Both the position numbers and the translations under genes were made by a program. 44,219 bases of DNA from an uncultured Eubacteriales bacterium (GTDB lineage: Bacteria; Bacillota; Clostridia; Christensenellales; Aristaeellaceae): contig CACYET010000001.1 of assembly GCA_902773515.1 (NCBI GenBank), positions 1-44,219 on the forward strand. Direction: 5' to 3'. Shown piece after piece: positions 6,144 to 44,017 of the stretch. How positions within the stretch are numbered: the stretch's first letter is position 1; each line of letters begins with the position of its first letter. The notes below the pieces were generated by a model, which was not told the DNA's origin, ran no database searches, and saw only the letters and a program-made list of their open reading frames with translations.

Positions 6144-6164
6144 ATTCTATGTATGGAGGTTGCT

Positions 6165-6761
6165 ATGGCGAACGGCACAAAAGAGAGAATACTTGCCGCT
6201 GCACTGGAGATGTTTTCACAAAACGGCTATGCAGGGACAAACATTCGGGAACTGAGCGCATCTCTCGGGCTTGTGAAGTCCGGGGTCTATAAACATTTTG
6301 AGAGCAAAGAAGCGATTTGGAACGCACTGCTGGATCAGATGATTACCTATTATGCGGACCACTTTGGGTCGGCAGAACATCTGCCGACTGTACCGGATTC
6401 GCTGGAAGGGCTTGTCACGATGACCATGCAGATGGTGTACTTCACTGTGCATGATGAAAAAGTGATCATGACGCGCAAGGTGTTGACGCTTGAGCAGTTC
6501 CGGGACGCACGTGCGCGGGAATTGGCAACAAAGCACTTTCTCACAGGGCTTACAGACATATTCACACGGATATTTACAAGTATGATGGATAAGGGTCTGC
6601 TTCGGAAGGATAATCCTGAAATGCTCGCATTTGCCTATACTGCGCCGATCTCTGCGCTGATCCATATGTGCGACCGTGAGCCGGAAAAAACAGAAGAAGC
6701 GATCAGGCAGGCAGAGGCCTTTAGTCGGCATTTTATCCGGGTTTACGGGCAGGAGGACTGA
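6165..6761 (+). CDS. TetR/AcrR family transcriptional regulator
   Basis: ATG 6165 after GGAGGT. MANGTKERILAAALEMFSQNGYAGTNIRELSASLGLVKSGVYKHFESKEAIW is a TetR HTH. Confidence 0.9.
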   Translation: MANGTKERILAAALEMFSQNGYAGTNIRELSASLGLVKSGVYKHFESKEAIWNALLDQMITYYADHFGSAEHLPTVPDSLEGLVTMTMQMVYFTVHDEKVIMTRKVLTLEQFRDARARELATKHFLTGLTDIFTRIFTSMMDKGLLRKDNPEMLAFAYTAPISALIHMCDREPEKTEEAIRQAEAFSRHFIRVYGQED

Positions 6762-6818
6762 TTAGACCGCCCAGTCAGGCATGGGGTATTGCCTGCCGCG
6801 AGAAGGGGATGACAACGA

Positions 6819-8360
6819 ATGGTTTTGGAAACAAAAAGACTGTTGCTTCGGGAAATGAACCCTGAGGACTACGAGGCGCTGTTCCGGGTGCTTGGCGATC
6901 CGGAAACGATGTGGCATTATCCCTACACTTTCGATGGGCAGCATGTCAGGGATTGGATCGAACGGAACATAAAGCGTTATCGAAAGGACGGCTTCGGGCT
7001 GTGGGCGGTCTGCTTAAGGGACACCGGTGAGATGATCGGCGACTGCGGGCTGACGCTGCAGAATATCAACGGGGAAATCCTGCCCGAAATCGGCTATCAC
7101 ATCCGCCGCGATTGCCAGCGGAAGGGTTATGCCCGTGAAGCCGCAATGGCTGTGCGCAACTGGGCTTTTCAGAATACCGACTATCCGGCGTTGTATTCGT
7201 ACTGCAAGTACACCAATATACCGTCGATCAAGACGGCGGAATCCATCGGCATGGGCTTTGACCGCGAATACCCGGACGAAGTCAACGGAACCACCCATGT
7301 CTCGGTCATTCGCAGGGAGGATTTGATTGAGAACATGATCCACTGGGCCGAGGCCAGGCTCGGCAGCACGAAATATGTGGGCTGGTGCCTGTCCTTCATC
7401 GAGGACGCGCTGGAAAAGAGCAATGAAATCGAGGTTTTCGGTGGGGACAGCGCGAAGGAGTCTGCTTTGCTCTATGCTGACGGAATGCGTCAGGGCATGC
7501 CGGAGCGAGGCGCGTTTGTCTTCTATGATTGCATCTGTCAGGGCTCGGACGGTCCGGCCAACTGGGGTCACTGTGGCATCAGCCTTGGGGACGGCAAGAT
7601 CATCCATGCCTGGGATACGGTGCGAATCGACGATTACCGGGAGATCGAAGCCATGACAGCGCTCTCCGGGAATCATCCGCAATACATTGGATGGGTGCCA
7701 GTGGATCGGGTATTGATGCAGAACGAGGAGGATTGTGTGACCAGCTATGACTTAAAAATCCCGGAAATGCTTGCCAACTACACGGACAAGGGCTGTGAAG
7801 TCAAGGACCTTGCCATCTATATGGGAATGAATTATCAATACAAGAGATTGGACAAACACAATTTCACTAGTCATTCATTGGATGAATTTGTCCGCCACCA
7901 GACTGTTGCAGAATGTTGGAGAAAGATAGACAACGATTGGAATCTTGTGCCGAATGTCTATGAAGAAAACTGGTCGCAGATGCAGTGCCGGGAAATTGCA
8001 GAAGACGTGGTGCATCATATAAACCTTGACCAGACTGGCTTTGGCGCCTTCGATGGCGAGCGGATCATTGGGTTTGCGACCGTCTCCCATCGTATGTTCG
8101 GAGCTGCGGCAAGATATGTGCAGCTGGTTTGTCTTCAGATATCAGAGGAATACAGGCGTCAGGGCATCGGCAGGAAGCTCTTTTCTATGGCTTGTGAAGA
8201 GGCTCGGCGGCTGGGTGGAGACAAACTGTATATTTCGGCTCATTCCTCAAAAGAGTCACAGGCGGCCTACCGGGCACTTGGATGCAGTTACGCAGAAGAA
8301 ATCAATGAGGAACTGGCCGCAGCGGAGCCCTTTGATGTCCAAATGGAATACAGATTATAA
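6819..8360 (+). CDS. Three-domain protein: RimJ/RimL-type GNAT, then an NlpC/P60-like cysteine peptidase/amidase fold, then a second GNAT
   Basis: aa 1-170: MVLETKRLLLREM...GLWAV...IGYHIRRDCQRKGYAREA. aa ~175-300: GWCLSFIE (Cys)...WGHCGISLGDGKIIHA (His). aa ~400-513: VQLVCLQISEEYRRQGIGRKLF. No signal peptide. Confidence 0.8.
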   Translation: MVLETKRLLLREMNPEDYEALFRVLGDPETMWHYPYTFDGQHVRDWIERNIKRYRKDGFGLWAVCLRDTGEMIGDCGLTLQNINGEILPEIGYHIRRDCQRKGYAREAAMAVRNWAFQNTDYPALYSYCKYTNIPSIKTAESIGMGFDREYPDEVNGTTHVSVIRREDLIENMIHWAEARLGSTKYVGWCLSFIEDALEKSNEIEVFGGDSAKESALLYADGMRQGMPERGAFVFYDCICQGSDGPANWGHCGISLGDGKIIHAWDTVRIDDYREIEAMTALSGNHPQYIGWVPVDRVLMQNEEDCVTSYDLKIPEMLANYTDKGCEVKDLAIYMGMNYQYKRLDKHNFTSHSLDEFVRHQTVAECWRKIDNDWNLVPNVYEENWSQMQCREIAEDVVHHINLDQTGFGAFDGERIIGFATVSHRMFGAAARYVQLVCLQISEEYRRQGIGRKLFSMACEEARRLGGDKLYISAHSSKESQAAYRALGCSYAEEINEELAAAEPFDVQMEYRL

Positions 8361-8552: not shown

Positions 8553-8629
<77 letters not shown>

Positions 8630-8665: not shown

Positions 8666-8742
8666 GCCGGCGTATCTCAGTTGGCTAGAGAATCCGGTTC
8701 ATACCCGGAGTGTCATTGGTTCGAATCCGATCGCCGGTACCA
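8666..8742 (+). tRNA. tRNA with CAT anticodon (elongator Met, or Ile2 if lysidine-modified)
   Basis: gccggcg...ccggttCATacccgg...GGTTCGAATCC...cgccggtACCA. A standard 7-bp acceptor stem is fully paired. Confidence 0.85.
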
Positions 8743-13553: not shown

Positions 13554-13750
13554 GTAGGGGCGGCGATGCGCCGCGGGACGCGGTCCCACCGCCCGCCAAA
13601 AGCCTTCCCCTTTGGGGAAGGTGGCGCGAAGCGCCGAAAGAGGTCCATTTACGTCACGCTTCGCGCCTCTGTTATGATAAAGGCGCTTGGCGATTCGATA
13701 TGAGACCTCTTCCGCCCCCTACGGGGGCACCTTCCCCAGAGGGGAAGGCC
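13554..13750. repeat. GTAGGGGCGGC unit plus a full-length family A palindromic element
   Basis: gtaggggcggcgatgcgccgc...ggtcccaccgcccgcc (13554-13595). Left arm 13596-13645; core containing gataaaggcgct; right arm 13704-13750. Confidence 0.85.
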
Positions 13751-17220: not shown

Positions 17221-17451
17221 GACAACCCCTCCGCCTGCTGCGCAGGCACCTCCCCTTGAAAGGGGAGGCAAGGGCGGGCGGTGACAAAGAAGCCTTCCCC
17301 TTTGGGGAAGGTGGCCGAACGAAGTGAGGTCAGAAGAGGTCCCCTTGCGCCTCGTCTCGCGCCTTCGCTCCGATAAAGGCGCTGAACTGATCGAAAAGGA
17401 CCTCTTCCGCCCCCTGACGGGGGCACCTTCCCCAGAGGGGAGGGCTTTTTG
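17221..17451. repeat. Family A: one solitary arm plus a full-length palindromic element
   Basis: Solitary arm 17221-17273. Left arm 17287-17342; core with gataaaggcgct; right arm 17398-17451. Confidence 0.85.
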
Positions 17452-26671: not shown

Positions 26672-27973
26672 TCAGATCCGGCACTCCGCCTCTCCGAGGT
26701 CCAGGCCCTCGTTGAACCTCCGGGCGTTTTCAAGGGTCTCGGCGGCGATGGCCTGCAGGGCTTCGCGGGTGAAGAACGCCTGGTGCGAGGTCATCACCAC
26801 GTTGGGGAACATCTGCAGCCGCGCCGTGACGTCGTTGTTCAGGAATTCGGTGGAGCGGTCGGTGTACACGTTGTCGTCCTCGCCCTCGTACACGTCCAGC
26901 CCCACGGCGTGGAACTTGCCGTTCTTGAGGGCCTCGATCAGCGCCTCGGTGTCGATCAGGCCGCCGCGCGCGGTGTTCACCAGCATGGCGGTGTCCTTCA
27001 TCCGGGCGATGGCCGCCGCGTCGATCAGGTGCCAGGTGCCGCCCGGGCCCGCGATCAGCGGCGCGTGCAGCGAGATCAGGTCCGCGCGCTCCAAGAGCTC
27101 GTCCCTGTCCACGTAGGTCAGCAGCCCCTCCTCCTCCAGCGCCGGGTTCGGGAAGGCGTCCCACGCGAGCACCGTCATGCCGAAGCCTTTGCAGATGCGG
27201 GCCATGCACTGGCCGATCTTGCCCGTGCCCAGGATGCCGGCCACCTTGTTGTGCAGGTCCACGCCCAGCAGGCCCGACAGCGCGAAGTTGTTGTCACGCA
27301 CCTTGTTCACGGCCTTGTGCAGGCGGCGGTTGGCGGTCATGATCAGGCTCATGGCGTGCTCGGCCACGGCGTAGGGCGAGTAGGCCGGCACGCGCGCCAC
27401 CTTGATGCCGCACTCCTTCGCGGCCTGCAGGTCCACGTTGTTGAAGCCCGCGCAGCGCAGCAGGATCAGCTTCACGCCGCAGTCCTTGAGCGTCTCCACC
27501 GCCTCGCGGGGCAACTCGTCGTTCACGAACACGCACACCGCGTCGAAGCCCCGCGCCAGGTTCGCCGTCTCCGGCGTCAGGCGGCAGCTGTAGTACTTGA
27601 TATCGCAGTTGTAGGTGCCCTCGCCGCGATCCTTCGCCAGCTCGCTGAAGAACAGGCGATCGTAGTCCTTGGTGCCGAAGAAGGCGATGCGCATCACGTC
27701 CGTCCGGCGCTTGTCCCGCAGCTTTTCGCACAGCACGCGGCGCACCTCGTTCAGCGCGGCCTGCTCGTCGCCGCCCTCGGCGACGATCTCCAGCACCGAG
27801 CCCTTCACGGCGTGCAGCGCCAATATCTCCAGCACGTTGGACCCGCTGGCGGATTTGCCGTTGTACCTGACGGTGATCTGCGAGGACAGGTTCACGCACG
27901 CCTGGGCCAGGAAGGCCGCGGGCCGCGCGTGCATCCCCAGCGTGTTTTGGACTTCAAAGGTCATCGTGGTCAT
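26672..27973 (-). CDS. Fusion protein: HPr-like PTS phosphocarrier domain (aa 1-85) plus D-lactate dehydrogenase (LdhA-type 2-hydroxyacid dehydrogenase, aa 94-433)
   Basis: N-terminus MTTMTFEVQNTLGMHARPAAFLAQ... has the His-15 motif G-x-HARPA. A linker RDKRRTDV leads to MRIAFFGTKDYD...LRCAGFNNVDL...GTGKIGQ...TSHQAFFT. There is no stop between the two parts. RBS AAGGAG lies 8 nt before the ATG at 27973. Confidence 0.85.
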   Translation of the reverse strand: MTTMTFEVQNTLGMHARPAAFLAQACVNLSSQITVRYNGKSASGSNVLEILALHAVKGSVLEIVAEGGDEQAALNEVRRVLCEKLRDKRRTDVMRIAFFGTKDYDRLFFSELAKDRGEGTYNCDIKYYSCRLTPETANLARGFDAVCVFVNDELPREAVETLKDCGVKLILLRCAGFNNVDLQAAKECGIKVARVPAYSPYAVAEHAMSLIMTANRRLHKAVNKVRDNNFALSGLLGVDLHNKVAGILGTGKIGQCMARICKGFGMTVLAWDAFPNPALEEEGLLTYVDRDELLERADLISLHAPLIAGPGGTWHLIDAAAIARMKDTAMLVNTARGGLIDTEALIEALKNGKFHAVGLDVYEGEDDNVYTDRSTEFLNNDVTARLQMFPNVVMTSHQAFFTREALQAIAAETLENARRFNEGLDLGEAECRI

Positions 27974-32159: not shown

Positions 32160-33923
32160 ATGAAGAAACTGCTTTCCATCGTCCTCGCCGCCATACTGGT
32201 GCTGGCGCTCGGCGCGCTGGCCGAGGACGGCAAGATCACCTCGACCGGCGTCGGCCAGGGCATCGACGGAGACGTGAAGGTGCAGGTCGTCGCCGACGCC
32301 ACCACGATCTATTCCGTGGAGGTGCTCGAACAGAACGAGACGCCCGGCATCGGCTCCGTGGCCGTGGAACAGCTGCCCGGCCAGATCGTCGAGGCCAACA
32401 GCATCCTCGTGGACAGCATCTCCGGCGCGACCGTGACCAGCGACGCCATCAAGACGGCGGTGCGCCAGGCGCTCGAGGACGGCGGGCTGGACGTGTCCGT
32501 GTTCGAGGTGGAGCAGGCGGCCGCGGAGGTCGCCGAGAAGACGCCCGAGACGCTGGATTGCGACGTGGTGATCGTCGGCGCGGGCGGCGCGGGCCTGACC
32601 GCGGCGGTGCGCGCCAACCAGGCGGGCGCGAAGGTGCTCGTGCTGGAGAAGATGTCGTTCGTCGGCGGCAACAGCCTGAAGGCCTCCGGCGGCATGAACG
32701 CCGCGGGCACGAAGTTCCAGGAGGCGCTGGGCATCACCGACAGCGGCGTGCGGGAGTTCGTCGAGGACACGATGAACGGCGGCCACATGATCAACGACCT
32801 GGCCCTCGTGGTGACCATGTCGGAAAACAGCTCCGACGCCGTGGACTGGCTCGAATCCATCGGCGCGCCGCTGCCGAAGGTGGCGGCCACCGGCGGCACC
32901 GTGCACAAGTACCTGCACTCCCCGGAGGACGGCAGCCCCGTCGGCGCGTACCTGGTGGCCAAGCTGAACGAGGAAGTCGAGAAGCAGGGCATCCAGGTCA
33001 TGCTGAACACGAAGGCCACCGAGATCCTGACGGACGAGGGCTGCGCGGTGGGCGTGAAGGCCGAGGACGCCGAGCACGAATACACCATCAACGCCCACGC
33101 GGTCATACTCGCCACCGGCGGCTTCGGCTCGAACTTTGAGCTGATGACCAGCTTCAACCCGAGCCTGGCCAACGCGGTGACCACCAACCATCCCGGCGCC
33201 ACCGGCGACGGCATCCTGATGGCCGAGGCCATCGGCGCCGCCACCGTGGACATGGACCGCATCCAGCTGCATCCCACCGTGTACCAGGAGACCAGCACGC
33301 TGGTCTCGGAGAAGATGCGCTCGCTGGGCGCGATCCTGGTCAACCAGGAGGGCAAGCGCTTCTGCAACGACCTGTCCACCCGCGACGCCGTCTCCGCGGC
33401 GGAGCTGGAGCAGACCGGCGGCTACGCCTACATCATCTTCGACCAGAACCTGGTGGACCAGAACAAGTCCGCCAAGGAGTACATCAGCAAGGGCATGACC
33501 TCCACCGGCGAGACCTACGAGGAGCTGGCGAAGAACATGGGCCTCGAGGGCGACGCCGTGGCGGCCTTTGAAGAGACCATGGCCACCTGGAACGAGGCCG
33601 TGGCCACCGGCGAGGACAAGGAGTTCGGCCGCAACAACGGCATGGACGCCGACCTGTCCACCGCGCCCTACTACGCCATCAAGATCGCCCCCGGCATCCA
33701 CCACACGATGGGCGGCATCAAGATCGACACCGCCACGCAGGTGCTCGACACCGAAGGCAACGTGATCCCCGGCCTGTACGCGGCCGGCGAGACCACCGGC
33801 GGCGTGCACGGCGGCAACCGCATCGGCGGCAACGCCGTGTGCGACTTCGTGGTGTTCGGCCGCATCGCCGGCGAGAAGGCCGCGGCGTACGCGGAGACCT
33901 TCGCCCTGCAACCGGCGGCGTAA
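32160..33923 (+). CDS. Secreted flavoprotein reductase: FMN_bind (flavinylation) domain plus an FAD-dependent fumarate/urocanate-reductase-family catalytic domain
   Basis: Signal peptide MKKLLSIVLAAILVLALGALA. FMN_bind with DSISGATVTS (32421-32432). FAD fold DVVIVGAGGAGLTAA; HHTMGGI; GLYAAGETTGGVHGGNRIGGNA. Confidence 0.9.
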   Translation: MKKLLSIVLAAILVLALGALAEDGKITSTGVGQGIDGDVKVQVVADATTIYSVEVLEQNETPGIGSVAVEQLPGQIVEANSILVDSISGATVTSDAIKTAVRQALEDGGLDVSVFEVEQAAAEVAEKTPETLDCDVVIVGAGGAGLTAAVRANQAGAKVLVLEKMSFVGGNSLKASGGMNAAGTKFQEALGITDSGVREFVEDTMNGGHMINDLALVVTMSENSSDAVDWLESIGAPLPKVAATGGTVHKYLHSPEDGSPVGAYLVAKLNEEVEKQGIQVMLNTKATEILTDEGCAVGVKAEDAEHEYTINAHAVILATGGFGSNFELMTSFNPSLANAVTTNHPGATGDGILMAEAIGAATVDMDRIQLHPTVYQETSTLVSEKMRSLGAILVNQEGKRFCNDLSTRDAVSAAELEQTGGYAYIIFDQNLVDQNKSAKEYISKGMTSTGETYEELAKNMGLEGDAVAAFEETMATWNEAVATGEDKEFGRNNGMDADLSTAPYYAIKIAPGIHHTMGGIKIDTATQVLDTEGNVIPGLYAAGETTGGVHGGNRIGGNAVCDFVVFGRIAGEKAAAYAETFALQPAA

Positions 33924-34100: not shown

Positions 34101-34129
34101 TTTACAAACCGCGATTAATATGTTAAAAT
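34101..34129 (+). promoter_or_regulatory. Candidate rnf operon promoter
   Basis: TTTACA 34101-34106, 17 nt, TAAAAT 34124-34129, in an AT-rich patch about 75 nt upstream of rnfC. Confidence 0.55.
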
Positions 34130-34203
34130 AATCGTGATACACTGTGTGCCGTCTATGCGCGACGGCGCGCGAGACCAAAAACATATGTGGAGGGGAGTCG
34201 AGA

Positions 34204-35556
34204 ATGGTGAAGCGCACCTTTCGCGGCGGCGTTCATCCCGACGGTCACAAGGAGCTGAGCCGGGAAGTGCCTCTGCGCGAATTCCTGCCGGCGGGAGAAA
34301 TGGTGTTCCCGCTGTCCCAGCACATCGGCAAGCCCGCCAAGCCCATCGTGAAGAAGGGCGACGCGGTGCTGGTCGGCCAGAGGATCGCGGAGGCGGACGG
34401 CTATGTGTCCGCGCACATCGCGTCCTCCTGCTCCGGCGTGGTCAAGGCCATCGAGAAGCGCCTGACGCTCATGGGCGCGTTGGCGGACTGCATCGTGGTG
34501 GAGAACGACGGCCAGTTCACGCCCGCCGAGGGCTTCGGCGAGCGCGAGGAGCAGGCGAGCCTGTCCAACGACGAGATCCTTCGCCGCATACAGGACGCCG
34601 GCGTGGTGGGCCTGGGCGGCGCGGGCTTCCCGACCCACGTGAAGCTCAAGCCGAAGGACCCCGCGGCCATCCGCTACGTCATCGCCAACGGCGCGGAGTG
34701 CGAGCCCTACCTGACCTGCAACGATCAATTGATGCGCGTCAAGGCGAACGAGATCGTGGAGGGGCTGGAGCTGGTGCTGCAGCTGTTCCCGAACGCCGAG
34801 GGCGTGATCGGCATCGAGGACAACAAGCCGGTGGCCATCGCCGCGATGAAGCAGGCCGCTCACGGCAAGCCCCGCCTGCGCGTGATGGAGCTGCAGACGA
34901 AGTACCCGCAGGGCGGCGAGCGCAGCCTGATCCAGGTGATCGCCGGGGTGGACTTCCCCATCTCGATGCTCCCGGCGGACGTGGGCTGCGTGGTGGACAA
35001 CGTGGGCACGCTCTACGCCATCCAGCGCGCCGTGCTCTACCGCGAGCCGCTGTTTTCCCAGTGCTTTACGCTCACCGGCGAGGCCGCGAAGAACCCCGGC
35101 AACTTCATCGTCCGCGACGGCACCTCGTTTGCGGAGCTGCTCGAGTTCGCGGGCGGCCTGAAGGACGGCGTGACGCTTAAAAAGGCGCTGGTCGGCGGCC
35201 CGATGATGGGCATCGCGCTGGGCAGCCTGGACGTGCCGATCCAGAAGCAGAACAACGGCCTGACGCTGATGGACGAGGACCCCGTGGAGCTGGCCGAGGC
35301 CCAGATGACGGCCTGCCTGCGCTGCGGGCGCTGCGCGAAGGTCTGTCCCGTGGGCCTGCTGCCCGAGCCGATGGCCGACGCCGCGCTCAGCAAGGACTAC
35401 GAGCGCTATGAAAAGAAGCTCTACGGCCTGGAGTGCATCCAGTGCGGCAGCTGCACCTACAACTGCCCGGCCAAGCGCCCCCTGATGCAGATCTTCAAGG
35501 AGGCCAAATCTGAAATACAGGCGCGCAAGCGCGCAGAGGCGGGAGGCACAAAATGA
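34204..35556 (+). CDS. rnfC: Rnf complex subunit C (NADH-binding/FMN, 2x[4Fe-4S])
   Basis: MVKRTFRGGVHPDGHKELS...GLGGAGFPTHVKL...ANGAECEPYLTCNDQLM...CLRCGRCAKVCP...CIQCGSCTYNCP. RBS GGAGGGGAG. Confidence 0.95.
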   Translation: MVKRTFRGGVHPDGHKELSREVPLREFLPAGEMVFPLSQHIGKPAKPIVKKGDAVLVGQRIAEADGYVSAHIASSCSGVVKAIEKRLTLMGALADCIVVENDGQFTPAEGFGEREEQASLSNDEILRRIQDAGVVGLGGAGFPTHVKLKPKDPAAIRYVIANGAECEPYLTCNDQLMRVKANEIVEGLELVLQLFPNAEGVIGIEDNKPVAIAAMKQAAHGKPRLRVMELQTKYPQGGERSLIQVIAGVDFPISMLPADVGCVVDNVGTLYAIQRAVLYREPLFSQCFTLTGEAAKNPGNFIVRDGTSFAELLEFAGGLKDGVTLKKALVGGPMMGIALGSLDVPIQKQNNGLTLMDEDPVELAEAQMTACLRCGRCAKVCPVGLLPEPMADAALSKDYERYEKKLYGLECIQCGSCTYNCPAKRPLMQIFKEAKSEIQARKRAEAGGTK

Positions 35557-37133
35557 ACAACGCGCTGAATATCTCCTCCAGCCCCCATGTAAGGGACAAG
35601 CGCACGACCGCGTACATGATGCGCGTCGTGCTGCTGGCGCTGATGCCCGCGACGGTCGTGGGCGTATGCAACTACGGCCTGCACGCGCTGCTGGTGGTGC
35701 TGGTAAGCGTCGCCGCGGCGGTGCTGAGCGAATTCGCGTTTGACAAGCTCTGCCACAAGCCGGACACCTGGAAGGACGGCAGCGCGGCGGTCACGGGCCT
35801 TCTGCTGGCGCTGTGCCTGTCGCCCCGGGTGCCGCTGACGATGCCGCTGCTGGGCAGCATGTTCGCGATCCTGATCGCCAAGTGCTGCTTCGGCGGCCTG
35901 GGCAAGAACTTCATCAACCCCGCCCTGGCCGGTCGGTGCTTCCTGCTGATCTCGTTCGGCAACCTGATGTCCACCTACAGAGTCGTAGACGGCGTGACCG
36001 CGGCCACCCCGGTGGCGGACCTGCTGGCCGGGAACCCGGTCAACGTCACGCGGATGTTCCTGGGCACCACGTCCGGCGTCATCGGCAGCTCCGCGCTGGC
36101 GCTGCTGGCGGGCGGCCTGGCGCTGTGGGCCCTGCAGATCATCCACGGCGAGATCTGCTTCTCGGTGCTGGGCACGTTCATACTGACGGTCGGGCTGTTC
36201 GGCGGCCAGGGCTTTGACCCCCGCTTCATCCTCGCCCACATCAGCGGCGGCGGCGTGCTGATGGCCGCGTTCTTCATGGCCACCGACTACGTCACCTCCC
36301 CCGCCACCCCGCTGGGCCAGCTGGTGTACGGCCTGCTGATCGGATTCCTCGGCGGCATCTTCCGCCTGTTCAGCGGCACCGCCGACTCCTTCAGCTACTG
36401 CGTGATCACCGGCAACCTGTTCGTGCCGCTGATCGACACCTATATCGTCTCCAAGCCCTACGCCTACCGGAAGGTCTCGCTGCTCAAGCAGCTGCGGGCC
36501 TCCGGCGAGCCCTGGTACAAGCGCGTGCCGCGCCCGGTGATCGTGCTGACGGCCATCGCCGCCATCGCGGGCCTGGCGCTCTCCGGCGTCTACTTCATGA
36601 CCAAGGACACCATCGACAACCAGAAGCGCGCCGCGCAGGCCGCCTCCTACAAGGCGGTGTGCCCGCTGGCGGACCACTTTGAGGCCGACGAAACCATCGA
36701 CAAGGCCGTGGCCGACCTGAACGGCGCCGTGTACGGCACCGACTTCGGGCGCGCCCACATCAACGAGGGCTTTGCGGCCCTGGACGAGGGCGGCAACAAC
36801 GTCGGCTACGCCTTCAGCGTCACCAGCGCCGACGGCTTTGACGGCAACGTCACGCTGGCCGTGGGCGTGGACAATGAAGGCGCGGTGACGGGCATCTCCT
36901 TCACCGAGCTGAACGAGACCCCCGGCATGGGCATGCGCGTGGACGAGCCGGAGTTCAAGGACCAGTTCACCGGCAAGGCCGTGTCGAAGTTCACGCTGAA
37001 CAAGGCGGGCGGCTCCACCGCGGACGATCAGATCGACAGCGTCTCCGGCGCGTCCACCACGTCCGGCGCGGTGGTCAACGCCGTCAACGCCGCCCTCGAC
37101 TTCTACAACAACACGGTGAAGGGGGGAGCCTGA
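35553..37133 (+). CDS. rnfD: Fused Rnf subunits D and G in one 526-aa ORF
   Basis: aa 1-~315 are RnfD (SSSPHVRD...GKNFINPALAGR...FFMATDYVTSP...VPLID). A TM helix VIVLTAIAAIAGLALSGVYF follows, then an RnfG FMN_bind domain ending DSVSGASTTS (37044-37055). There is no stop between the two parts. Confidence 0.88.
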   Translation: MNNALNISSSPHVRDKRTTAYMMRVVLLALMPATVVGVCNYGLHALLVVLVSVAAAVLSEFAFDKLCHKPDTWKDGSAAVTGLLLALCLSPRVPLTMPLLGSMFAILIAKCCFGGLGKNFINPALAGRCFLLISFGNLMSTYRVVDGVTAATPVADLLAGNPVNVTRMFLGTTSGVIGSSALALLAGGLALWALQIIHGEICFSVLGTFILTVGLFGGQGFDPRFILAHISGGGVLMAAFFMATDYVTSPATPLGQLVYGLLIGFLGGIFRLFSGTADSFSYCVITGNLFVPLIDTYIVSKPYAYRKVSLLKQLRASGEPWYKRVPRPVIVLTAIAAIAGLALSGVYFMTKDTIDNQKRAAQAASYKAVCPLADHFEADETIDKAVADLNGAVYGTDFGRAHINEGFAALDEGGNNVGYAFSVTSADGFDGNVTLAVGVDNEGAVTGISFTELNETPGMGMRVDEPEFKDQFTGKAVSKFTLNKAGGSTADDQIDSVSGASTTSGAVVNAVNAALDFYNNTVKGGA

Positions 37134-37134
37134 G

Positions 37135-37818
37135 ATGAACAAGTACGTTGAACGCCTCTACAACGGCGTGGTGAAGGAGAACCCCACGCTGATCCTGATG
37201 CTGGGCATGTGCCCCACGCTGGCGGTGTCCACCCGGGCCATGAACGGCATCGGCATGGGCCTGTCCACGATGGCGGTGCTGATCCTGTCCAACCTGGTGA
37301 TCAGCCTGCTGCGCAAGGTGATCCCGGACGAGGTGCGCCTGCCGGCCTACATCGTGGTGGTGGCCTCGCTGGTGACGGTGACGGAGCTGCTGATCGAGGC
37401 CTACCTGCCCTCGCTGTACGAGGCGCTGGGCATCTACATCCCGCTGATCGTCGTCAACTGCATCATCCTGGGCCGCGCCGAGGCCTACGCCAACAAGCAC
37501 ACGCCGCTCTTGTCCGTGATGGACGGCATCGGCATGGGCATCGGCTTCACGCTGGCGCTGACGCTGGCGGGCCTGATCCGCGAGCTGCTGGGCAACGGCA
37601 CCGCCTTCGGCGCGCAGATCCTGCCCAGCGGCATCGACCCCATCGGCATCTTCGTGCAGCCTCCGGGAGCCTTCCTGGTGCTGGCGCTGATCATCGCCGT
37701 GATGAACGCCATCGGCATCAAGTCCCGCCAGCGCGACCTGGTGGACGTGGGCTGTGACGGCGTGTGCGCGCGCTGCACCGCCGAGTGCAAAAAGTCCGGG
37801 GAGGTGAACGCCAAGTGA
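37135..37818 (+). CDS. rnfE: Rnf complex subunit E with a Cys-rich C-terminal tail
   Basis: ENPTLILMLGMCPTLAVS...GIYIPLIVVNCIILGRAEA; tail GCDGVCARCTAEC. Confidence 0.93.
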   Translation: MNKYVERLYNGVVKENPTLILMLGMCPTLAVSTRAMNGIGMGLSTMAVLILSNLVISLLRKVIPDEVRLPAYIVVVASLVTVTELLIEAYLPSLYEALGIYIPLIVVNCIILGRAEAYANKHTPLLSVMDGIGMGIGFTLALTLAGLIRELLGNGTAFGAQILPSGIDPIGIFVQPPGAFLVLALIIAVMNAIGIKSRQRDLVDVGCDGVCARCTAECKKSGEVNAK

Positions 37819-38393
37819 AGAGCCTGATACTGATCATCATCACCGGCGCTCTGATCAACAACGTGGTGCTCAATCAGTTCCTGGGCATCTGTTCGTTCCT
37901 GGGCGTCTCCAAGCAGATGAAGGCCTCGGCCTCGCTGGGCGGCGCGGTGATATTCGTCATCACGATCGCCTCCGCGGTCGCGAGCCTGCTGTACGACTAT
38001 GTGCTCGCGCCCCTGGGCATGGACTTCATGAAGACCATCGTGTTCATACTGGTCATCGCGGCGCTGGTGCAGATCGTGGAGATGTTCCTGAAGAAGACGT
38101 CCCCCGGCGTGTACAAGGCGCTGGGCATCTACCTGCCGCTGATCACCACGAACTGCGCCGTGCTGGGCGTGGCGCTGACCAACGTGCAGGACGGCTACAA
38201 CTTCATCGAAAGCGTGTTTTCCGGCTTCGGCACGGCCGTGGGCTTCACCCTCGCCATCGTGCTGCTGGCCAGCATCCGCTCCCGCATCCGCGAGGAGGAC
38301 ATCCCCGCCCCGCTGCGCGGCGCGCCGATCGTGCTGATCTCCGCGGCGCTGATGTCCATCGCCTTCATGGGCTTCTCCGGCCTGTCGTTCTGA
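37815..38393 (+). CDS. rnfA: Rnf complex subunit A
   Basis: GTG start overlaps the rnfE stop (GTGA) after GGGGAGG. NNVVLNQFLGICSFLGVS...GIYLPLITTNCAVLG. Confidence 0.9.
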   Translation: MKSLILIIITGALINNVVLNQFLGICSFLGVSKQMKASASLGGAVIFVITIASAVASLLYDYVLAPLGMDFMKTIVFILVIAALVQIVEMFLKKTSPGVYKALGIYLPLITTNCAVLGVALTNVQDGYNFIESVFSGFGTAVGFTLAIVLLASIRSRIREEDIPAPLRGAPIVLISAALMSIAFMGFSGLSF

Positions 38394-38406: not shown

Positions 38407-39201
38407 ATGCAGATCATAATCATTACAACGCTGGTGATCGCCGTCATCGGCATCGTGGTCGGCGCCGGACTGGTGTTTACCGGCAAGAAATTCCACGTGG
38501 ACGTAGATGAGCGCGAGAGCGCCGTGCGGGAATGCCTGCCCGGCAACAACTGCGGCGCGTGCGGCTACGCGGGCTGCGACGCACTGGCGGCGGCCATCGC
38601 CGCCGGGAACGCCTCGGTCAACGCCTGCCCGGTGGGCGGCGCGCCCGTGGCCCAGAAGATCGGCGAGATCATGGGCCAGAGCGCCGAGGCCGTGGAGGGC
38701 AAGGTCGCGTTCGTGCGCTGCAAGGGCAGCTGCGACGTGACCCACAACCAGGGCAACTACGTGGGCATGGACTGCCGAAGCGCGGTGCTCGCGGGCCTGA
38801 ACGTCACCGACTGCACCTACGGCTGCCTGGGCTTCGGCTCCTGCGCGGCGGTCTGCCCGCAGGACGCCATCCGCGTGGTGGACGGCGTGGCCATGGTCGT
38901 GCGCAAGAAGTGCGTGGGCTGCGGGCTGTGCGTCAAGGCGTGCCCGAGGGGCCTGATCGAGCTGGTGCCCGCGTCGAAGCGCGTGATCGTGCAGTGCTCC
39001 AACAAGGACCGGGGGCCGCAGGTCAAGAAGGTCTGCTCCGCCGGCTGCATCGGCTGCATGCTGTGCACCCGCCAGTGCGAATCCGACGCCATCCACGTGT
39101 CGAACAACCTGGCCAGCATCCAGTACGAGAACTGCACCCAGTGCGGCAAGTGCGCCGAGAAGTGCCCCGTCAAAGTCATCACCCCGCCGCCGGGCGTCTG
39201 A
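38407..39201 (+). CDS. rnfB: Rnf complex subunit B (membrane-anchored polyferredoxin)
   Basis: N-terminal TM helix, CLPGNNCGACGYAGCDALA, then several CxxCxxCxxxCP clusters. Confidence 0.93.
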   Translation: MQIIIITTLVIAVIGIVVGAGLVFTGKKFHVDVDERESAVRECLPGNNCGACGYAGCDALAAAIAAGNASVNACPVGGAPVAQKIGEIMGQSAEAVEGKVAFVRCKGSCDVTHNQGNYVGMDCRSAVLAGLNVTDCTYGCLGFGSCAAVCPQDAIRVVDGVAMVVRKKCVGCGLCVKACPRGLIELVPASKRVIVQCSNKDRGPQVKKVCSAGCIGCMLCTRQCESDAIHVSNNLASIQYENCTQCGKCAEKCPVKVITPPPGV

Positions 39202-39283: not shown

Positions 39284-41512
39284 ATGGATAAGAAGACCAT
39301 TGTCAGGCTGGTCGTCGTGGGACTGGCCCTGATCCTGACGACCGTCTTTGCCTGCGGCTTCACGAAGGGCGGCCCGGTGACCTACCAGATCCCCGGCCCC
39401 TACACCGCCGAGAGCACCAACAACTTCAGCACCGTCCAGGTGGAGATGACCATTCAGGACGAGAAGATCACCGACTGCGCGATCACCTCGTCCGGCGACA
39501 GCGACCTGCTGAACGACAGCATCCGCGCCGAGTGGGCCCAGTCCATCGTGGACAACCAGACCGCCGAGAACGACGTGATCTCCGGCGCGACCCTCGTCTA
39601 CTCCGCCGCGTCCGTCCAGGAGGCCTCGAACGACATCCTCGTCCAGGCGGGCCTGCGCGAGCCGACCGCCGAAGCGGAGCCTGTCGAAACTGACACCGAG
39701 GGCGGAGAGGCCGAGAGCGCCGACGCCGAAACCGGCGAGGCCGACATCGGCGAGGCCGCGCCGCCAACAGAGGCCGCGGCGCTGAACGACGGCACCTACA
39801 CCGTCCAGAAGACCACCGATTTCAGCACCATCGACGTGGAGATCACCGTCGAGAACGGCGCGATCACGAAGGCCGCCGTCGCCTCCGAGGGCGCGAACGA
39901 CCTGCTCACCGACGACCATCGCAGCGCCTGGGCGGACCAGATCGTGGAAAAGCAGGCCGTCGACGCCGTCTCCGGCGTGACCGTCTCCTCGAACGCCGTG
40001 CAGGAAGCCGTGGCCGAGCTGCTGGCCCAGGCCTCCGGCGAGGCCCCGGCCGGGGAAGCGAGCGCGGACGCGGGCGAAAAGGAGGCCGATCCGCGCCTGG
40101 CGAGCATCCTGCCCGCGATCGTGACCACGATGGGCGACAACCGCGACAACAGCTACGTGACCGACTACCTGGAGCAGGACCCGTACCTCGTGAACATCTA
40201 CGAGGGCTACGGCTTCGCCAAGGACTACGGCAGCGCCCGCGGCCACGAGTACACGCTGGAGGACGTCGCCAAGACCCAGCGCCCGCACCCCAAGGCCAAC
40301 TGCCTGACCTGCAAGACGCCCGATCTGCACAAGATGATCGAGGAGCAGGGCGTGGCGGTCTACTCGATGCCCTTTGACGAGGTCATGCCCCAGATGACGC
40401 AGAACGTGAGCTGCTACACCTGCCACGGGGCCGACGACGGCAACGACGGCGAGATCGTGATCACCCACCGCTACGTGACCGAAGCACTGGCCAATAACGC
40501 CGAAGCCATCAAGCCCGCGACGCTGTCCTGCGGCCAGTGCCACATCGAATACTACTTCACCCCCCAGGACAGCGAGGCCATGATGCCCTACCACAGCGTG
40601 GAGCAGATGACCCCCGAGGCGATCCTGGCCTACTACGACAACTTCAACTTCGCCGACTGGACCCAGGAGAGCACCGGCACCCGCCTGCTGAAGGCCCAGC
40701 ACCCCGAGATGGAGACCGTGCTGCAGGGCAAGCACGCGGCGTTCCTCAGCTGCGCGGACTGCCACATGCCCACCGAAAAGACCGAGGACGGCACCGAGTA
40801 CCTCAGCCACAAGCTGGTCAGCCCGCTGGAGAGCGAGGCGCTGCTGGAGAGCTGCGCGAAGTGCCATGGCGACACCGACATGACCGCGTTCGTCAAGGGC
40901 ATCCAGGAGCGCGTGACCGCCCGCGAGACGGAGGTCGGCAACCGCCTGAGCGCGATGAAGGACAAGCTGGCCGAGGCCGTGGCCTCCGGCACCTGGAGCG
41001 AGGACGACCTGAACGCCGTGCGCAAGCTGCACCGCGAGGCCCAGTGGTTCTTTGACTTCTGCTACGTGGAGAACAGCGAGGGCGCGCACAACACCGAGCT
41101 GGCGTACCGCTGCCTGGACACCGCCGACCAGAAGATCGACGAGGCCCTGGCGCTGCTGGGCGAGAACGTGGAGAGCGCCGCGCCCGCCGCGGAGCCCGCG
41201 AAGTCCGGCAACCTCACCGACGGCATCTACACCGCCGAGGCCGTCAACGACTTCAGCACCGTCGACGTCTACGCCGCCGTTCGCAACGGCCTGATCGACG
41301 ACTGCGTGATCTCCTCCTCCGGCGACAACGACCTGCTGACCGACGAGCTCCGCTATGAATGGGGCAGGGCCGTCGTCGAGGCTCAGTCCGCCGACACCGA
41401 CGCCATCACCGGCGCGTCCCTGACGTTCTCCGCCGCCTCCGTCAAGGAGGCCGTGGACGACATCCTCGCCCGCGCCGCGGGCTCCGAAGCCGGGGAGAAG
41501 GGCGCGCAGTAA
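39284..41512 (+). CDS. nrfA: Lipoprotein pentahaem cytochrome c nitrite reductase (NrfA) fused to three FMN_bind domains (two N-terminal, one C-terminal)
   Basis: Signal plus VFAC lipobox-like Cys24. FMN_bind repeats carry SGAT (39581-39592), SGVT (39971-39982) and TGAS (41408-41419). Haem motifs: CLTCK 40301-40315, CYTCH 40412-40426, CGQCH 40529-40543 (CHIEYYF), CADCH 40751-40765, CAKCH 40853-40867. SARGH and LKAQHPE blocks are present. Confidence 0.9.
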   Translation: MDKKTIVRLVVVGLALILTTVFACGFTKGGPVTYQIPGPYTAESTNNFSTVQVEMTIQDEKITDCAITSSGDSDLLNDSIRAEWAQSIVDNQTAENDVISGATLVYSAASVQEASNDILVQAGLREPTAEAEPVETDTEGGEAESADAETGEADIGEAAPPTEAAALNDGTYTVQKTTDFSTIDVEITVENGAITKAAVASEGANDLLTDDHRSAWADQIVEKQAVDAVSGVTVSSNAVQEAVAELLAQASGEAPAGEASADAGEKEADPRLASILPAIVTTMGDNRDNSYVTDYLEQDPYLVNIYEGYGFAKDYGSARGHEYTLEDVAKTQRPHPKANCLTCKTPDLHKMIEEQGVAVYSMPFDEVMPQMTQNVSCYTCHGADDGNDGEIVITHRYVTEALANNAEAIKPATLSCGQCHIEYYFTPQDSEAMMPYHSVEQMTPEAILAYYDNFNFADWTQESTGTRLLKAQHPEMETVLQGKHAAFLSCADCHMPTEKTEDGTEYLSHKLVSPLESEALLESCAKCHGDTDMTAFVKGIQERVTARETEVGNRLSAMKDKLAEAVASGTWSEDDLNAVRKLHREAQWFFDFCYVENSEGAHNTELAYRCLDTADQKIDEALALLGENVESAAPAAEPAKSGNLTDGIYTAEAVNDFSTVDVYAAVRNGLIDDCVISSSGDNDLLTDELRYEWGRAVVEAQSADTDAITGASLTFSAASVKEAVDDILARAAGSEAGEKGAQ

Positions 41513-41563
41513 GCGCATGGCAGGCCCGCGCAGGAGCGTCCCTGCATAATCCGTCCCCTGCGT

Positions 41564-41724
41564 CCAAATGGCCTTCCCCTATGGGGAAGGTGGCCGAGCA
41601 GGTGCCAGAGGCACCGTCCGCGAGGTCGGATGAGGTCGGGCAGCGCTGAGCCTATCGCTGTACCCAGTCGACCTCATCCGTCAGCCCTGCGGGCTGCCAC
41701 CTTCCCCAGAGGGGAAGGCTTTTG
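41564..41724. repeat. Family A palindromic element between nrfA and resB
   Basis: Left arm 41564-41637 (ccaaatggccttcccctatggggaaggtggcc...ggatgaggtc). Right arm 41669-41724 (gacctcatcc...caccttccccagaggggaaggcttttgg). Confidence 0.85.
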
Positions 41725-41737
41725 GATGCGCGCCCGT

Positions 41738-41768: not shown

Positions 41769-43043
41769 ATGAACACCATCAAACGCATCTACAAATTCAT
41801 AGCCTCCATGCGCTTCGCCATCATACTTCTGGTGGCGCTGGCGCTCGCCTGCTCCATCGGCAGCCTGGTCACGCAGGGCCAGAGCTACGACTGGTACGCC
41901 CAGCGCTACTCCGAACGCGCGGCGGCGCTGATCCTGGCGCTGCGGCTGGACGACGCCTTCCACAGCGCGTGGTTCATCGCCATCACGGCCTTCCTGTGCC
42001 TGAACCTGACGCTGTGCAACCTGACGCGCCTGCCCCGGCTGATCCGACGCACGCGGGCGGAGGGCCGGCCCGAGGGCGCGCTCGAATCCGCAGGCGACGT
42101 GTCCCGCGAGGGCGTCATCGACCCGAAGGCCGCGTTTGCCCGGCTGCACATGCCCGGGCCCGTCGCCTGCCAGACGGCGGACGGCCGCGACGCGCTGTTC
42201 GCGTCGAAGCACCGCGCGGGCCTCTGGGGCGCGTGGGTGTGCCACCTGGGGATCCTCCTGCTGATCCTGGGCTTCGGCCTGGGGCAGATGACGCAGGCGC
42301 AGTACACGGTCTACGGCGTGCCCGGAGACGAAAAGCCGATCGGCGACACCGGCTACACGCTCAGGATCGAGGACTTCACCGTGGAAAGGCGCGAGGACGA
42401 CTCCGTGGCGCAGTACACCGCGCAGATCAGCGTTTCGGGCGGCGACGCCCGGCAGAGCGCCGAGATCAGCGTGAACAACCCCGCCCGGCTGTTCGGCATG
42501 AAGTTCTACCAAAACTCCGTCGGCTGGGCGACGCGCGTGAACGTGCTGGAGGACGGCAAGCCCCTGCAGAGCGCCGTGATCTGCGCCGGGGAGTTCTTGC
42601 CCGTCGAGGACAAGCCGGAGCTGGTGGTCTACCTGAACGCCTTTTACCCGGACTACGCGATGGTCCCGGGCGTGGGGCCCTCCAGCGCCTCCGAGAAGCT
42701 CAACAACCCGGCGTGGCTCTACTCGGTGTACTACCAGGGCCAGCTGTTGGGCATGAACGCGCTGATGGCGGGCGAGGAATTGACCATCGACGCATACACC
42801 GTCACGTTCACCGAGCCGCAGAACTACACGCTGATCCAGATCAAGCGCGACCGCTTCACGTGGATGGCGCTGGCAGGCGGCCTCGCCACGATGCTGGGCC
42901 TGCTGCTGGCCTTCTACCTCCAGCCCGCGAAGGTCTGGGCCGTCCGCGAGCCGGACGGCCGCTGGACGCTGCGCGGCGCATGCAAGAAGGGCGGAGCGAT
43001 ATGGAAGGATCGATTTGACAACGCGACAGGACAAAAGTTTTGA
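41769..43043 (+). CDS. resB: Cytochrome c biogenesis protein ResB/CcsB (system II)
   Basis: MNTIKRIYKFIASMRFAIILLVALALACSIGSLVTQG, a large extracytoplasmic loop and a C-terminal TM helix. No Shine-Dalgarno upstream. Confidence 0.85.
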   Translation: MNTIKRIYKFIASMRFAIILLVALALACSIGSLVTQGQSYDWYAQRYSERAAALILALRLDDAFHSAWFIAITAFLCLNLTLCNLTRLPRLIRRTRAEGRPEGALESAGDVSREGVIDPKAAFARLHMPGPVACQTADGRDALFASKHRAGLWGAWVCHLGILLLILGFGLGQMTQAQYTVYGVPGDEKPIGDTGYTLRIEDFTVERREDDSVAQYTAQISVSGGDARQSAEISVNNPARLFGMKFYQNSVGWATRVNVLEDGKPLQSAVICAGEFLPVEDKPELVVYLNAFYPDYAMVPGVGPSSASEKLNNPAWLYSVYYQGQLLGMNALMAGEELTIDAYTVTFTEPQNYTLIQIKRDRFTWMALAGGLATMLGLLLAFYLQPAKVWAVREPDGRWTLRGACKKGGAIWKDRFDNATGQKF

Positions 43044-43201: not shown

Positions 43202-44017
43202 ATGCTACAAGTCGAAAACACCCTCTTCACCCTCGTCATGCTGCTGTATTTCGCGGCGATGGCGCTGTACTTCGCGTTCATCGCCGTCAAGAAGGACGGC
43301 GTGGCCAGGGCGGCGGTGGGCCTGCAGATCGCGGGCCTCGCGCTGCACACGGCGGCGCTCGTGTGCCGGGGCATCGGCGCGGGGCGGCTGCCGCTGACGA
43401 ACCAGTACGAGTTCGCCACCTCGTTCGCCTGGGGGCTGTGCCTAGTGAGCCTGGCGTTCGTGATCCGCTTTCGCTTCCCGGTGCTGGGCGCGTTCGCCTC
43501 GCCGGTCACATTCCTGATCATCGGCTACGCCGCCATGCAGAGCAGGGAGGTCAAGAACCTGATGCCCGCGCTGCGCAGCAATTGGCTGGGCTTTCACGTG
43601 TCCACGGCCATCATCGCCTACGGCGCGTTCGGCGTGTCGTTCGTGCTGGGCGTGATCTTCCTGCTGCGCGACAGGATGCGCGCGCGCGGCTTCATGGACC
43701 AGCACATCCCGGGCCGCGAAAAGCTGGACGTGATCGCCTATCGGAGCGTGTCGCTGGGGCTGCTGTTTTTGACGTTCACGATCATCACCGGGGCCATCTG
43801 GGCCGAGCGCGCCTGGGGCAGCTATTGGTCGTGGGACCCGAAGGAGACCTGGTCGCTGGTTACGTGGATCATCTATTCCGCCTACCTGCACCTGCGCATC
43901 CGCCGCGGCTGGCAGGGCCGCGCCGCCGCGATCTTCGCCGTGATCGGCTTCGTCTGCGTGGTGTTCACCTACATCGGCGTGAACACGCTCCTCCCGGGCG
44001 TGCACAGCTACGCATGA
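43202..44017 (+). CDS. ccsA: Cytochrome c biogenesis protein CcsA/ResC (haem-handling, WWD domain)
   Basis: WAERAWGSYWSWDPKETWSLVTW (W-rich motif) plus conserved His residues. RBS AAGGAG. Confidence 0.9.
   Translation: MLQVENTLFTLVMLLYFAAMALYFAFIAVKKDGVARAAVGLQIAGLALHTAALVCRGIGAGRLPLTNQYEFATSFAWGLCLVSLAFVIRFRFPVLGAFASPVTFLIIGYAAMQSREVKNLMPALRSNWLGFHVSTAIIAYGAFGVSFVLGVIFLLRDRMRARGFMDQHIPGREKLDVIAYRSVSLGLLFLTFTIITGAIWAERAWGSYWSWDPKETWSLVTWIIYSAYLHLRIRRGWQGRAAAIFAVIGFVCVVFTYIGVNTLLPGVHSYA

Follow-up and report, generated by a model that had tools for sequence, protein, structure and literature searches.

A predicted NrfA-type nitrite reductase with FMN_bind modules encoded in an Rnf operon of uncultured rumen Clostridia

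Introduction

Respiratory nitrite ammonification, as described in textbooks, depends on NrfH or NrfB/CD as the haem partner that oxidises quinol. Here we describe a locus at which the gene for a predicted pentahaem NrfA directly follows the genes of an Rnf complex, and at which the NrfA itself carries three FMN_bind modules (FMN, flavin mononucleotide). The locus lies in DNA of an uncultured Eubacteriales bacterium (GTDB order Christensenellales, family Aristaeellaceae; assembly GCA_902773515.1, contig CACYET010000001.1, positions 1 to 44,219 of the forward strand). We refer to this whole stretch of 44,219 nucleotides (nt) as the window, and to the protein encoded by the open reading frame (ORF) at 39284-41512 on the + strand as NrfA-FMN. 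From its genomic linkage we infer, at a probability of roughly 60%, that Rnf donates electrons to NrfA-FMN; which way they flow, and any ion-motive coupling, are likewise proposals.

NrfA-FMN shares its catalytic core, lysine-ligated haem, Arg/Tyr/His residues, and Ca site with classical NrfA, whether of the type that works with NrfH (Wolinella, Desulfovibrio) or with NrfB/NrfCD (Escherichia coli). Unlike classical NrfA, members of the window family have their own N-terminal anchor, between 0 and 6 FMN_bind modules, a gene in the rnf operon, and no NrfH or NrfB nearby.

FMN_bind domains are known as the electron-entry modules of exported reductases, such as Listeria FrdA, Shewanella UrdA, and Klebsiella Frd, which carry the same motif. 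In these flavoreductases the catalytic partner is a flavin adenine dinucleotide (FAD) domain, whereas in NrfA-FMN it is a multihaem cytochrome. In the multi-FMN proteins SaFMN3 and CbFMN4, FMN_bind domains sit as beads on a string with flexible linkers, much as we describe for NrfA-FMN. Multi-flavinylated proteins were termed enigmatic in a 2025 review of ApbE.

Two described systems resemble the locus in its other half. In the archaeon Methanosarcina acetivorans, a c-type cytochrome gene also lies in the rnf operon, and electrons from ferredoxin have been proposed to reach the multihaem protein MmcA, whose gene is transcribed together with rnf, by way of Rnf and in a Na+-coupled manner (PMC6703419), giving the order ferredoxin to Rnf to cytochrome to external acceptor. 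That system differs in that MmcA is a heptahaem carrier rather than a nitrite reductase, in that it has no FMN_bind domain, and in that methanophenazine is involved. The second, Natranaerofaba carboxydovora, is a quinone-free Gram-positive bacterium with an Rnf complex and an NrfH-less NrfA that has a single transmembrane (TM) helix, and its membrane donor is not known. By contrast with the window, its nrfA lies in a nap locus rather than an rnf operon, and no FMN_bind modules have been reported for it.

The family itself appears to have been glimpsed once. Méheust et al. (2021, eLife, PMC8238504) devoted one sentence and Fig. 6H to a multi-flavinylated RnfG with a multi-heme cytochrome domain in Christensenellales. 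Given the shared combination of several FMN_bind domains with a multihaem domain, the RNF cluster, and the order Christensenellales, that protein almost certainly belongs to the same family as NrfA-FMN. However, its haem domain was not identified as NrfA there, nitrite was not named as a substrate, and neither the sister clade of bare NrfA nor the resB-ccsA linkage was described. The accessible parts of the supplements hold no PF02335, K03385, or nrfA entries, and the table of fusions gives zero clusters for fused "PF00890 + cytochrome + FMN-bind" (PMC8238504). The label "RnfG" is also inaccurate, because this operon already encodes the true RnfG, with its TM helix and FMN_bind domain, as a fusion with RnfD. 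Our full-text literature searches found no description of an FMN_bind-NrfA fusion or of Rnf-NrfA coupling, and neither Huang et al. (2024) nor the 2025 ApbE review mentions the family. In what we describe, the catalytic enzyme is of a known type and the system that feeds it electrons is uncharacterised; the combination had been glimpsed before but never identified or tested.

Results and Discussion

Domain architecture of NrfA-FMN

Translation of the ORF at 39284-41512 (+) gives a protein of 742 amino acids (aa). Its GC content at third codon positions is 0.95, typical of genuine genes in a window of ~65% GC. From N to C terminus, the protein consists of a membrane anchor, two FMN_bind modules, a pentahaem NrfA core, and a third FMN_bind module. 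The features below draw on Pfam, hydropathy, and AlphaFold2 (AF2) models with their predicted local distance difference test (pLDDT) scores.

39284..39370, + strand: N-terminal membrane anchor/signal with lipobox-like TVFAC24 (aa 1-29; hydropathy, AF2)
39386..39658, + strand: FMN_bind module 1, DVISGAT, predicted FMN-Thr103 (aa 35-125; Pfam 27.2 bits; AF2)
39659..39778, + strand: acidic E/A/T-rich disordered linker 1 (aa 126-165; AF2 pLDDT <30)
39779..40033, + strand: FMN_bind module 2, DAVSGVT, Thr233 (aa 166-250; Pfam 37.4 bits)
40139..41185, + strand: pentahaem NrfA catalytic core (aa 286-634; PF02335, PDB and Foldseek matches)
41204..41482, + strand: FMN_bind module 3, DAITGAS, predicted FMN-Ser712 (aa 641-733; Pfam 20.0 bits, profile, fold)

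The sole hydrophobic helix of the protein spans aa 3-29 by hydropathy and aa 3-23 in the AF2 model. This helix and the VFAC motif predict an extracytoplasmic location, and as a haem c protein NrfA-FMN must be exported. The lipobox-like Cys24 gives way to Ser in many relatives, so anchoring in the membrane is the conserved trait and lipidation need not be.

The full-length AF2 model reached a pLDDT of 68.5 and a predicted template modelling score (pTM) of 0.46, with disordered linkers at aa 129-164, 254-268, and 630-641. Together, the linkers and the low pTM suggest that the FMN modules are mobile beads in a beads-on-a-string layout. An assembly or chimera artefact was ruled out for the fusion, because the architecture was seen again in >100 independent assemblies.

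The NrfA core

The Pfam family Cytochrom_C552 (PF02335) matched aa 289-634, scoring 268 bits where the cutoff is 24.1 (E 2e-79). The core carries the lysine-ligated motif CLTCK340 and four further haem motifs, CYTCH377, CGQCH416, CADCH490, and CAKCH524; all five, including CxxCK, were invariant across 37 family members. Among solved NrfA, the core sequence matched those of Shewanella oneidensis (3ubr, 3e-49) and E. coli (1gu6, 8e-44), as well as those of Wolinella succinogenes, Desulfovibrio, and Geobacter. The AF2 core agreed with NrfA crystal structures (Foldseek E 1e-12), and its fold matched 2rdz, 3ubr, 1fs7, and 2j7a.

The residues expected of the active site are also in place. In alignments with S. 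oneidensis and E. coli NrfA, the catalytic Arg/Tyr/His and the Ca-site residues fall opposite the blocks SARGH, CHIEYYF, and LKAQHPE. In the family alignments, the CxxCK Lys, SARGH Arg, EYYF Tyr, AQHPE His, and Ca ligands (Glu and Gln being the ones tested) were all invariant. NrfA-FMN is therefore predicted to be an ammonia-forming nitrite reductase, taking nitrite to ammonium by six electrons.

The protein fell far short of the NCBIfam equivalog cutoffs, scoring 216 against 595 bits for NF008339 and 171 against 692.5 bits for TIGR03152, and relative to solved NrfA it is missing ~9 residues ahead of CxxCK. As judged by these comparisons, it is a divergent NrfA subfamily rather than the proteobacterial equivalog. 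The same low scores (216 vs. 595 and 171 vs. 692 bits) could be taken to mean that the physiological substrate is something other than nitrite, namely sulfite, hydroxylamine, or nitric oxide (NO), perhaps in detoxification; NrfA enzymes do turn over NO, hydroxylamine, and sulfite, and such a role would fit any model of electron input. Even so, every nitrite-reductase hallmark is invariant in the family, and we consider a different substrate very unlikely.

The FMN_bind modules

A Pfam scan of the whole protein found three FMN_bind stretches. With the flanks scanned singly against the curated cutoff of FMN_bind (PF04205), which is 22 bits, module 3 fell slightly under it at 20.0 bits; both its predicted fold and the family profile nevertheless identify it as FMN_bind. 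The three modules are 44-52% identical to each other (E 1e-20 to 1e-31) and are thus paralogues.

Their ties to other FMN_bind domains are looser. The canonical FMN_bind domain of a neighbouring flavoreductase is a distant relation (E 4e-5), and BLASTP of the modules against the RnfG domain of the same operon gave no match at E up to 10. A profile built from the modules matched two flavinylated proteins, CbFMN4 domain 1 (8p2b, 6e-15) and SaFMN3 domain 2 (8p2a, 1e-9), more strongly than RnfG (9eri_G, 4e-5), and it matched NqrC weakly. The modules form a divergent FMN_bind subtype without the ETPG(L/I)G segment. In the AF2 model every module has three beta-strands and two helices, at a pLDDT of about 80-93 (about 77-91 for module 1). 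Modelled singly, module 3 gave a pLDDT of 85 and a pTM of 0.75, and its best Foldseek matches were 3o6u, 8p2b (template modelling score 0.74, root-mean-square deviation 2.7 Å), and 8p2a.

ApbE recognises the motif D-x-x-[S/T]-G-A-[S/T] and joins FMN to its last residue (PMC12052999). Modules 1 and 3 agree exactly with this motif, and module 2 is an A-to-V variant of it. T103, T233, and S712 are accordingly the predicted sites of covalent FMN, with flavin attachment itself inferred from the motif. Across 561 modules in 149 family proteins, the pattern [DE]xx[ST]G[AV][ST] is kept in ~88%, and the single most frequent motif is DxxSGVT (162/561). We had considered whether the SGVT of module 2 marks a decayed copy. 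This was ruled out, since a motif that is the most frequent in the family points to a conserved subtype rather than to decay.

The number of C-terminal modules differs between close relatives. Against the single C-terminal module of the window (41204-41512), two relatives (P0001, 97% identical, and P0003, 88%) carry a tandem pair of near-identical copies. In a third locus (L008, from RUG13544), which is 98% identical, the called ORF is shorter and has no in-frame C-terminal module, and the DNA holds two module copies. These differences could be true copy-number variation or could come from a repeat that was collapsed or broken in assembly.

An earlier sequence-only reading of this DNA had proposed a five-part ORF with three paralogous flavin-binding repeats around an NrfA core, with T103 and S712 as flavinylation residues and with recognisable active-site and Ca-site blocks. 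The ORF and its parts were all found by Pfam and motif, the identities among the modules bear out the paralogy, DVISGAT and DAITGAS fit the ApbE motif, and the blocks aligned with solved structures. The suggested Pfam check likewise returned three FMN_bind stretches around one NrfA, with the reservation that module 3 by itself scored 20.0 bits against the cutoff of 22. The lipobox Cys24 is present in the window protein, but it is replaced by Ser in many relatives. Overall, NrfA-FMN is very probably an exported NrfA bearing three ApbE-type modules.

The Rnf operon and its conservation

All six Rnf subunits are encoded directly upstream of nrfA, which begins 82 nt past rnfB, and two genes for system II cytochrome c maturation lie downstream. 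These genes, which the sequence-only reading had overlooked, move the centre of the account from a flavin-flanked NrfA to an Rnf-embedded NrfA with flavin beads.

32160..33923, + strand: exported FMN_bind + FAD_binding_2 flavoreductase, fumarate-reductase-like (FAD_binding_2 8e-84, FMN_bind 4e-16)
34101..34129, + strand: promoter-like site before rnfC, TTTACA-17-TAAAAT, extended TG
34144..35556, + strand: rnfC, NADH/FMN-binding, 2x[4Fe-4S] (Pfam RnfC_N, Complex1_51K, SLBB, Fer4)
35553..37133, + strand: rnfD-rnfG fusion (NQR2_RnfD_RnfE 3e-93, FMN_bind 3e-17)
37135..37818, + strand: rnfE (Pfam Rnf-Nqr 7.5e-67)
37815..38393, + strand: rnfA (Pfam Rnf-Nqr 8e-60; relatives 192 aa)
38407..39201, + strand: rnfB, polyferredoxin-type (Pfam FeS and several Fer4)
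41769..43043, + strand: resB/ccsB, system II cytochrome c maturation (Pfam ResB 2e-54)
43202..44017, + strand: ccsA, system II cytochrome c maturation (Pfam Cytochrom_C_asm 3e-55)

Promoter-like sites were found ahead of rnfC and of the flavoreductase gene; the + strand of the rnfB-nrfA spacer showed none. The likely start of rnfA is a GTG at 37815 that overlaps the rnfE stop and has a GGAGG 11 nt upstream, whereas the mechanical ORF start is 37764. RnfD and RnfG are separate subunits in well-studied Rnf complexes. Here they are fused, in a form (~505-528 aa) common to all related loci. The RnfD part carries DGVTAAT (T152) and is followed by a TM helix at ~aa 325-350 and an outward-facing FMN_bind domain with DSVSGAS (S501). 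NrfA was the only ORF in the 44-kb window with ≥2 CxxC[HK] motifs, which indicates that no NrfH or NrfB is encoded nearby.

We scanned the GTDB species genomes with an alignment of the core, which matched 406 genomes, and examined 86 related loci (1.36 Mb). The best 80 of the 406 matched genomes were all ruminant-gut metagenome-assembled genomes (MAGs), labelled as Clostridiales, Clostridia, or Christensenellales and, in a few cases, as Oscillospiraceae or Lachnospiraceae. The top 120 database matches were nearly all FMN_bind + Cytochrom_C552 proteins of 630-1206 aa, and those with annotation read [quoted passage not shown]. Among the matches we saw none from a cultured organism, and a database search with a bare-clade NrfA gave just unnamed or MAG proteins.

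Gene order in these loci was highly conserved. Among loci with >5.6 kb of upstream DNA, rnfC-rnfDG-rnfE-rnfA-rnfB preceded nrfA, in that order, in 61 of 62. Of 66 loci, 60 had resB and ccsA directly 3' of nrfA, and a further 4 had them beyond one or two small inserted ORFs. The resulting eight-gene block has at least 33 different settings on its upstream side and at least 26 on its downstream side, with NrfA core identity among loci going down to 68%. Within 10 kb of nrfA in the 86 loci, there was no other ORF with ≥2 CxxCH and no NrfH or NrfB. The conservation of the Rnf block is the best clue to the electron donor.

Exported reductases also occur repeatedly in these operons. The window flavoreductase (32160..33923) lies directly 5' of rnfC; its N terminus bears a hydrophobic signal, and it contains the motif DSISGAT. 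The same position is filled in two relatives (L001 and L008). The flavoreductase probably draws on the same electron source as a second client outside the cytoplasm. In L037 (6297-9766), tatA, tatC, and a Tat-signal FMN_bind-FAD_binding_2 reductase of 690 aa lie between rnfB and a bare nrfA. Single ORFs in L066 (8147-11068) and L067 (755-4414) fuse an anchor, FMN_bind, a Frd-like FAD_binding_2 domain, and NrfA. The L066 fusion lies inside a full rnf operon; that of L067 has three FMN_bind modules, and the end of an rnfB-like gene lies at the contig edge. As read from their domains, both would be bifunctional flavo-cytochrome reductases. The insertion and fusion of exported reductases at all four of these loci suggest that the Rnf operons act as reductase hubs.

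Relatives with and without modules

ORF extraction and a family hidden Markov model showed that roughly half of the loci have a bare NrfA of ~425-435 aa, anchored but free of modules and likewise encoded between rnfB and resB. The remaining loci have 1-6 modules per NrfA, at the N terminus, the C terminus, or both. In a neighbour-joining tree of the cores, a decorated clade that includes the window stands apart from a bare clade, and both are Rnf-linked. Because bare NrfA occurs in the same rnf operon, the modules are not needed for the tie between NrfA and Rnf and are best seen as accessory. As far as gene content tells, then, it is the pairing of Rnf with NrfA that is conserved; the flavin beads (0-6 per protein) would be a lineage-specific relay.

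The sequence-only reading had held that the flavin modules stand in for a haem partner and that the architecture was undescribed. The lack of nrfH and nrfBCD nearby, on which the first claim drew, held up in the 44-kb window, where there is no other multihaem ORF. However, the bare NrfA in the same rnf operon means that the modules elaborate an Rnf-linked NrfA and do not simply replace NrfH. The second claim is right in that the protein had been neither characterised nor recognised as an NrfA, but the architecture had been mentioned by Méheust et al. (2021, PMC8238504).

The bare clade also raises the question of whether the modules relay electrons from the membrane at all. They could instead be a reservoir for the six-electron reaction, an acceptor for soluble flavin or quinone shuttles, a guard against O2, or a spacer that pushes NrfA into the cell wall, with NrfA receiving its electrons directly, as it must in the bare clade. 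The wide variation in module number and position (0-6, at either end) would suit such a role, as would the reduction of O2 by a characterised multi-FMN protein. Against a spacer, the flavinylation motif is strongly conserved, which argues for a redox function. Moreover, the N-terminal modules sit between anchor and core, where a relay would be needed. We therefore regard a non-relay function as improbable.

Some relatives carry the core twice. In L065 (9782-12217; also P0032 and P0038), a tandem NrfA-NrfA fusion contains two full pentahaem cores and is in effect a covalent form of the NrfA dimer. Ten haem motifs are also present in L004/P0078 and L007/P0054. Those of L065 and L007 are downstream of rnfB, and that of L004 is not beside rnf.

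Proposed electron path

In the path we propose, the covalent FMN of the outer-face RnfG domain would receive its electrons either from NADH, through RnfC and RnfD, or from reduced ferredoxin, through RnfB and RnfA/E. Electrons would exit the Rnf circuit at RnfG and hop via the three ApbE-flavinylated modules to the five c-haems, where the lysine-ligated haem 1 would turn nitrite into ammonium. In the bare clade, they would branch off from Rnf straight to NrfA. The N-terminal modules, lying between anchor and core, would provide a relay where long acidic linkers hold the core off the membrane. ResB and CcsA would mature the haems, ApbE encoded elsewhere would attach the flavins, and no quinol dehydrogenase (NrfH or NrfBCD) would be needed. 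On this reading, NrfA-FMN is a membrane-anchored, outward-facing enzyme of a monoderm rumen Clostridia bacterium, with rnfC-rnfDG-rnfE-rnfA-rnfB-nrfA-resB-ccsA as the working module.

The energetics and precedents are compatible with this path. A potential of -184 mV falls between those of ferredoxin/NADH and the nitrite/ammonium couple. That value is the one measured for a multi-FMN protein (PMC10339131). A branched RNF path has likewise been proposed for multi-flavinylated "RnfGs" (Méheust et al. 2021, PMC8238504), and the proposal for Rnf and MmcA in M. acetivorans is a second precedent. More tentatively, we suggest that Rnf and NrfA form a quinone-independent, single-complex ferredoxin (or NADH):nitrite respiratory chain in which Rnf would still pump Na+ or H+.

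Several observations weigh against the proposed path. The interaction between Rnf and NrfA is suggested by genomic linkage, and such linkage could reflect co-regulation for redox balance. Because the related loci belong to a single broad clade of ruminant-gut Clostridia, some of their synteny reflects descent rather than independent selection. Three loci (L004, L059, and L079) have an NrfA of the same clade without rnf upstream. The specific role of the FMN modules is the weakest step, given the bare NrfA in the same operon. Module 2 has the A-to-V variant, and in a model protein, Klebsiella pneumoniae Frd, the same change in the motif cut flavinylation to about 50% (PMC12052999). The full-length AF2 model, which is cofactor-free and has low inter-domain confidence, leaves the docking of the modules on the haem core undefined. 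Finally, ApbE was not found among the well-supported ORFs of the window. A copy is nevertheless implied in the genome, because RnfD and RnfG of the same operon also need ApbE, and in two related loci (L003 and L020) it lies 3 kb downstream of the block.

Some of these points would be expected if NrfA-FMN were fed by another membrane system encoded elsewhere, with the adjacency to rnf reflecting co-regulation or inherited gene order. [quoted passage not shown] The three same-clade loci without rnf upstream fit such a donor, as does a window without ApbE or other flavinylation genes, and there is a parallel in FMN_bind reductases of other Gram-positive bacteria, such as Listeria FrdA, whose electrons come from a dedicated EET locus instead of Rnf. 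However, no such component was found within 10 kb of nrfA in the 86 loci. The rnf-nrfA-resB-ccsA block persists in at least 33 upstream contexts and down to 68% NrfA identity, and exported flavoreductases have repeatedly been inserted or fused in the same rnf operons. For these reasons, we think a separate donor unlikely, and we continue to favour Rnf as the source of the electrons.

Significance

If Rnf does feed NrfA, the enzyme would draw on the ferredoxin/NADH pool of strictly fermentative Gram-positive bacteria that perhaps lack quinones, and it would give such fermenters an energy-conserving electron sink. It would be the first case of a bacterial Rnf as donor to an extracytoplasmic terminal reductase, and uncultured rumen Clostridia would include hundreds of species that are unrecognised nitrite ammonifiers. 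If the modules also take part, no earlier enzyme would have had a multihaem catalytic centre supplied by covalent-flavin beads. Knowledge of this kind would be of practical worth in the rumen, where nitrate is fed to lower methane and the build-up of nitrite is toxic, so that it matters which organisms remove nitrite and with which electrons. Furthermore, the natural series from bare NrfA through 1-6 beads to NrfA-NrfA and Frd-like-NrfA fusions would provide an experimental ladder for the study of multi-flavinylated domains.

Other features of the window and related loci

Small proteins of the NusG_II family (PF07009) and a PF07456 "Hpre_diP_synt_I" protein flank the ApbE gene near the block in L003 (14629-17312), and a NusG_II protein lies between nrfA and resB in L007 (12620-12967). 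These neighbours may be accessory genes for flavin trafficking.

The spacer between nrfA and resB in the window is occupied by a paired palindrome that resembles repetitive extragenic palindromes (REP) and miniature inverted-repeat transposable elements (MITE).

41560..41730, + strand: REP/MITE-like paired palindrome in the nrfA-resB spacer (-121 kcal/mol, z -10.5)

Its right arm looks like an intrinsic terminator. A terminator 3' of nrfA as an nrfA-specific signal was rejected, because this structure is an arm of a dispersed REP/MITE-like repeat. The repeat consists of intergenic paired palindromes of the form CCTTCCCC-NNN-GGGGAAGG, ~110-130 nt apart, with 9 copies against 0 expected by chance. 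Its sites in the window are 333-511, 13603-13748, 17293-17444, and 41572-41718.

Elsewhere in the window, a patch of low GC at 6096-8360 (0.51 vs. ~0.65) encodes a TetR-like regulator and a 513-aa ORF that is acetyltransferase-like by eye. It adjoins tRNA genes at 8553-8626 and 8666-8739 and is probably a horizontally acquired islet. On the - strand at 26672-27973, an HPr domain of the phosphotransferase system is fused to a D-2-hydroxyacid dehydrogenase beside genes for EI and EIIABC, and the same fusion is present in one of the related loci (L002).

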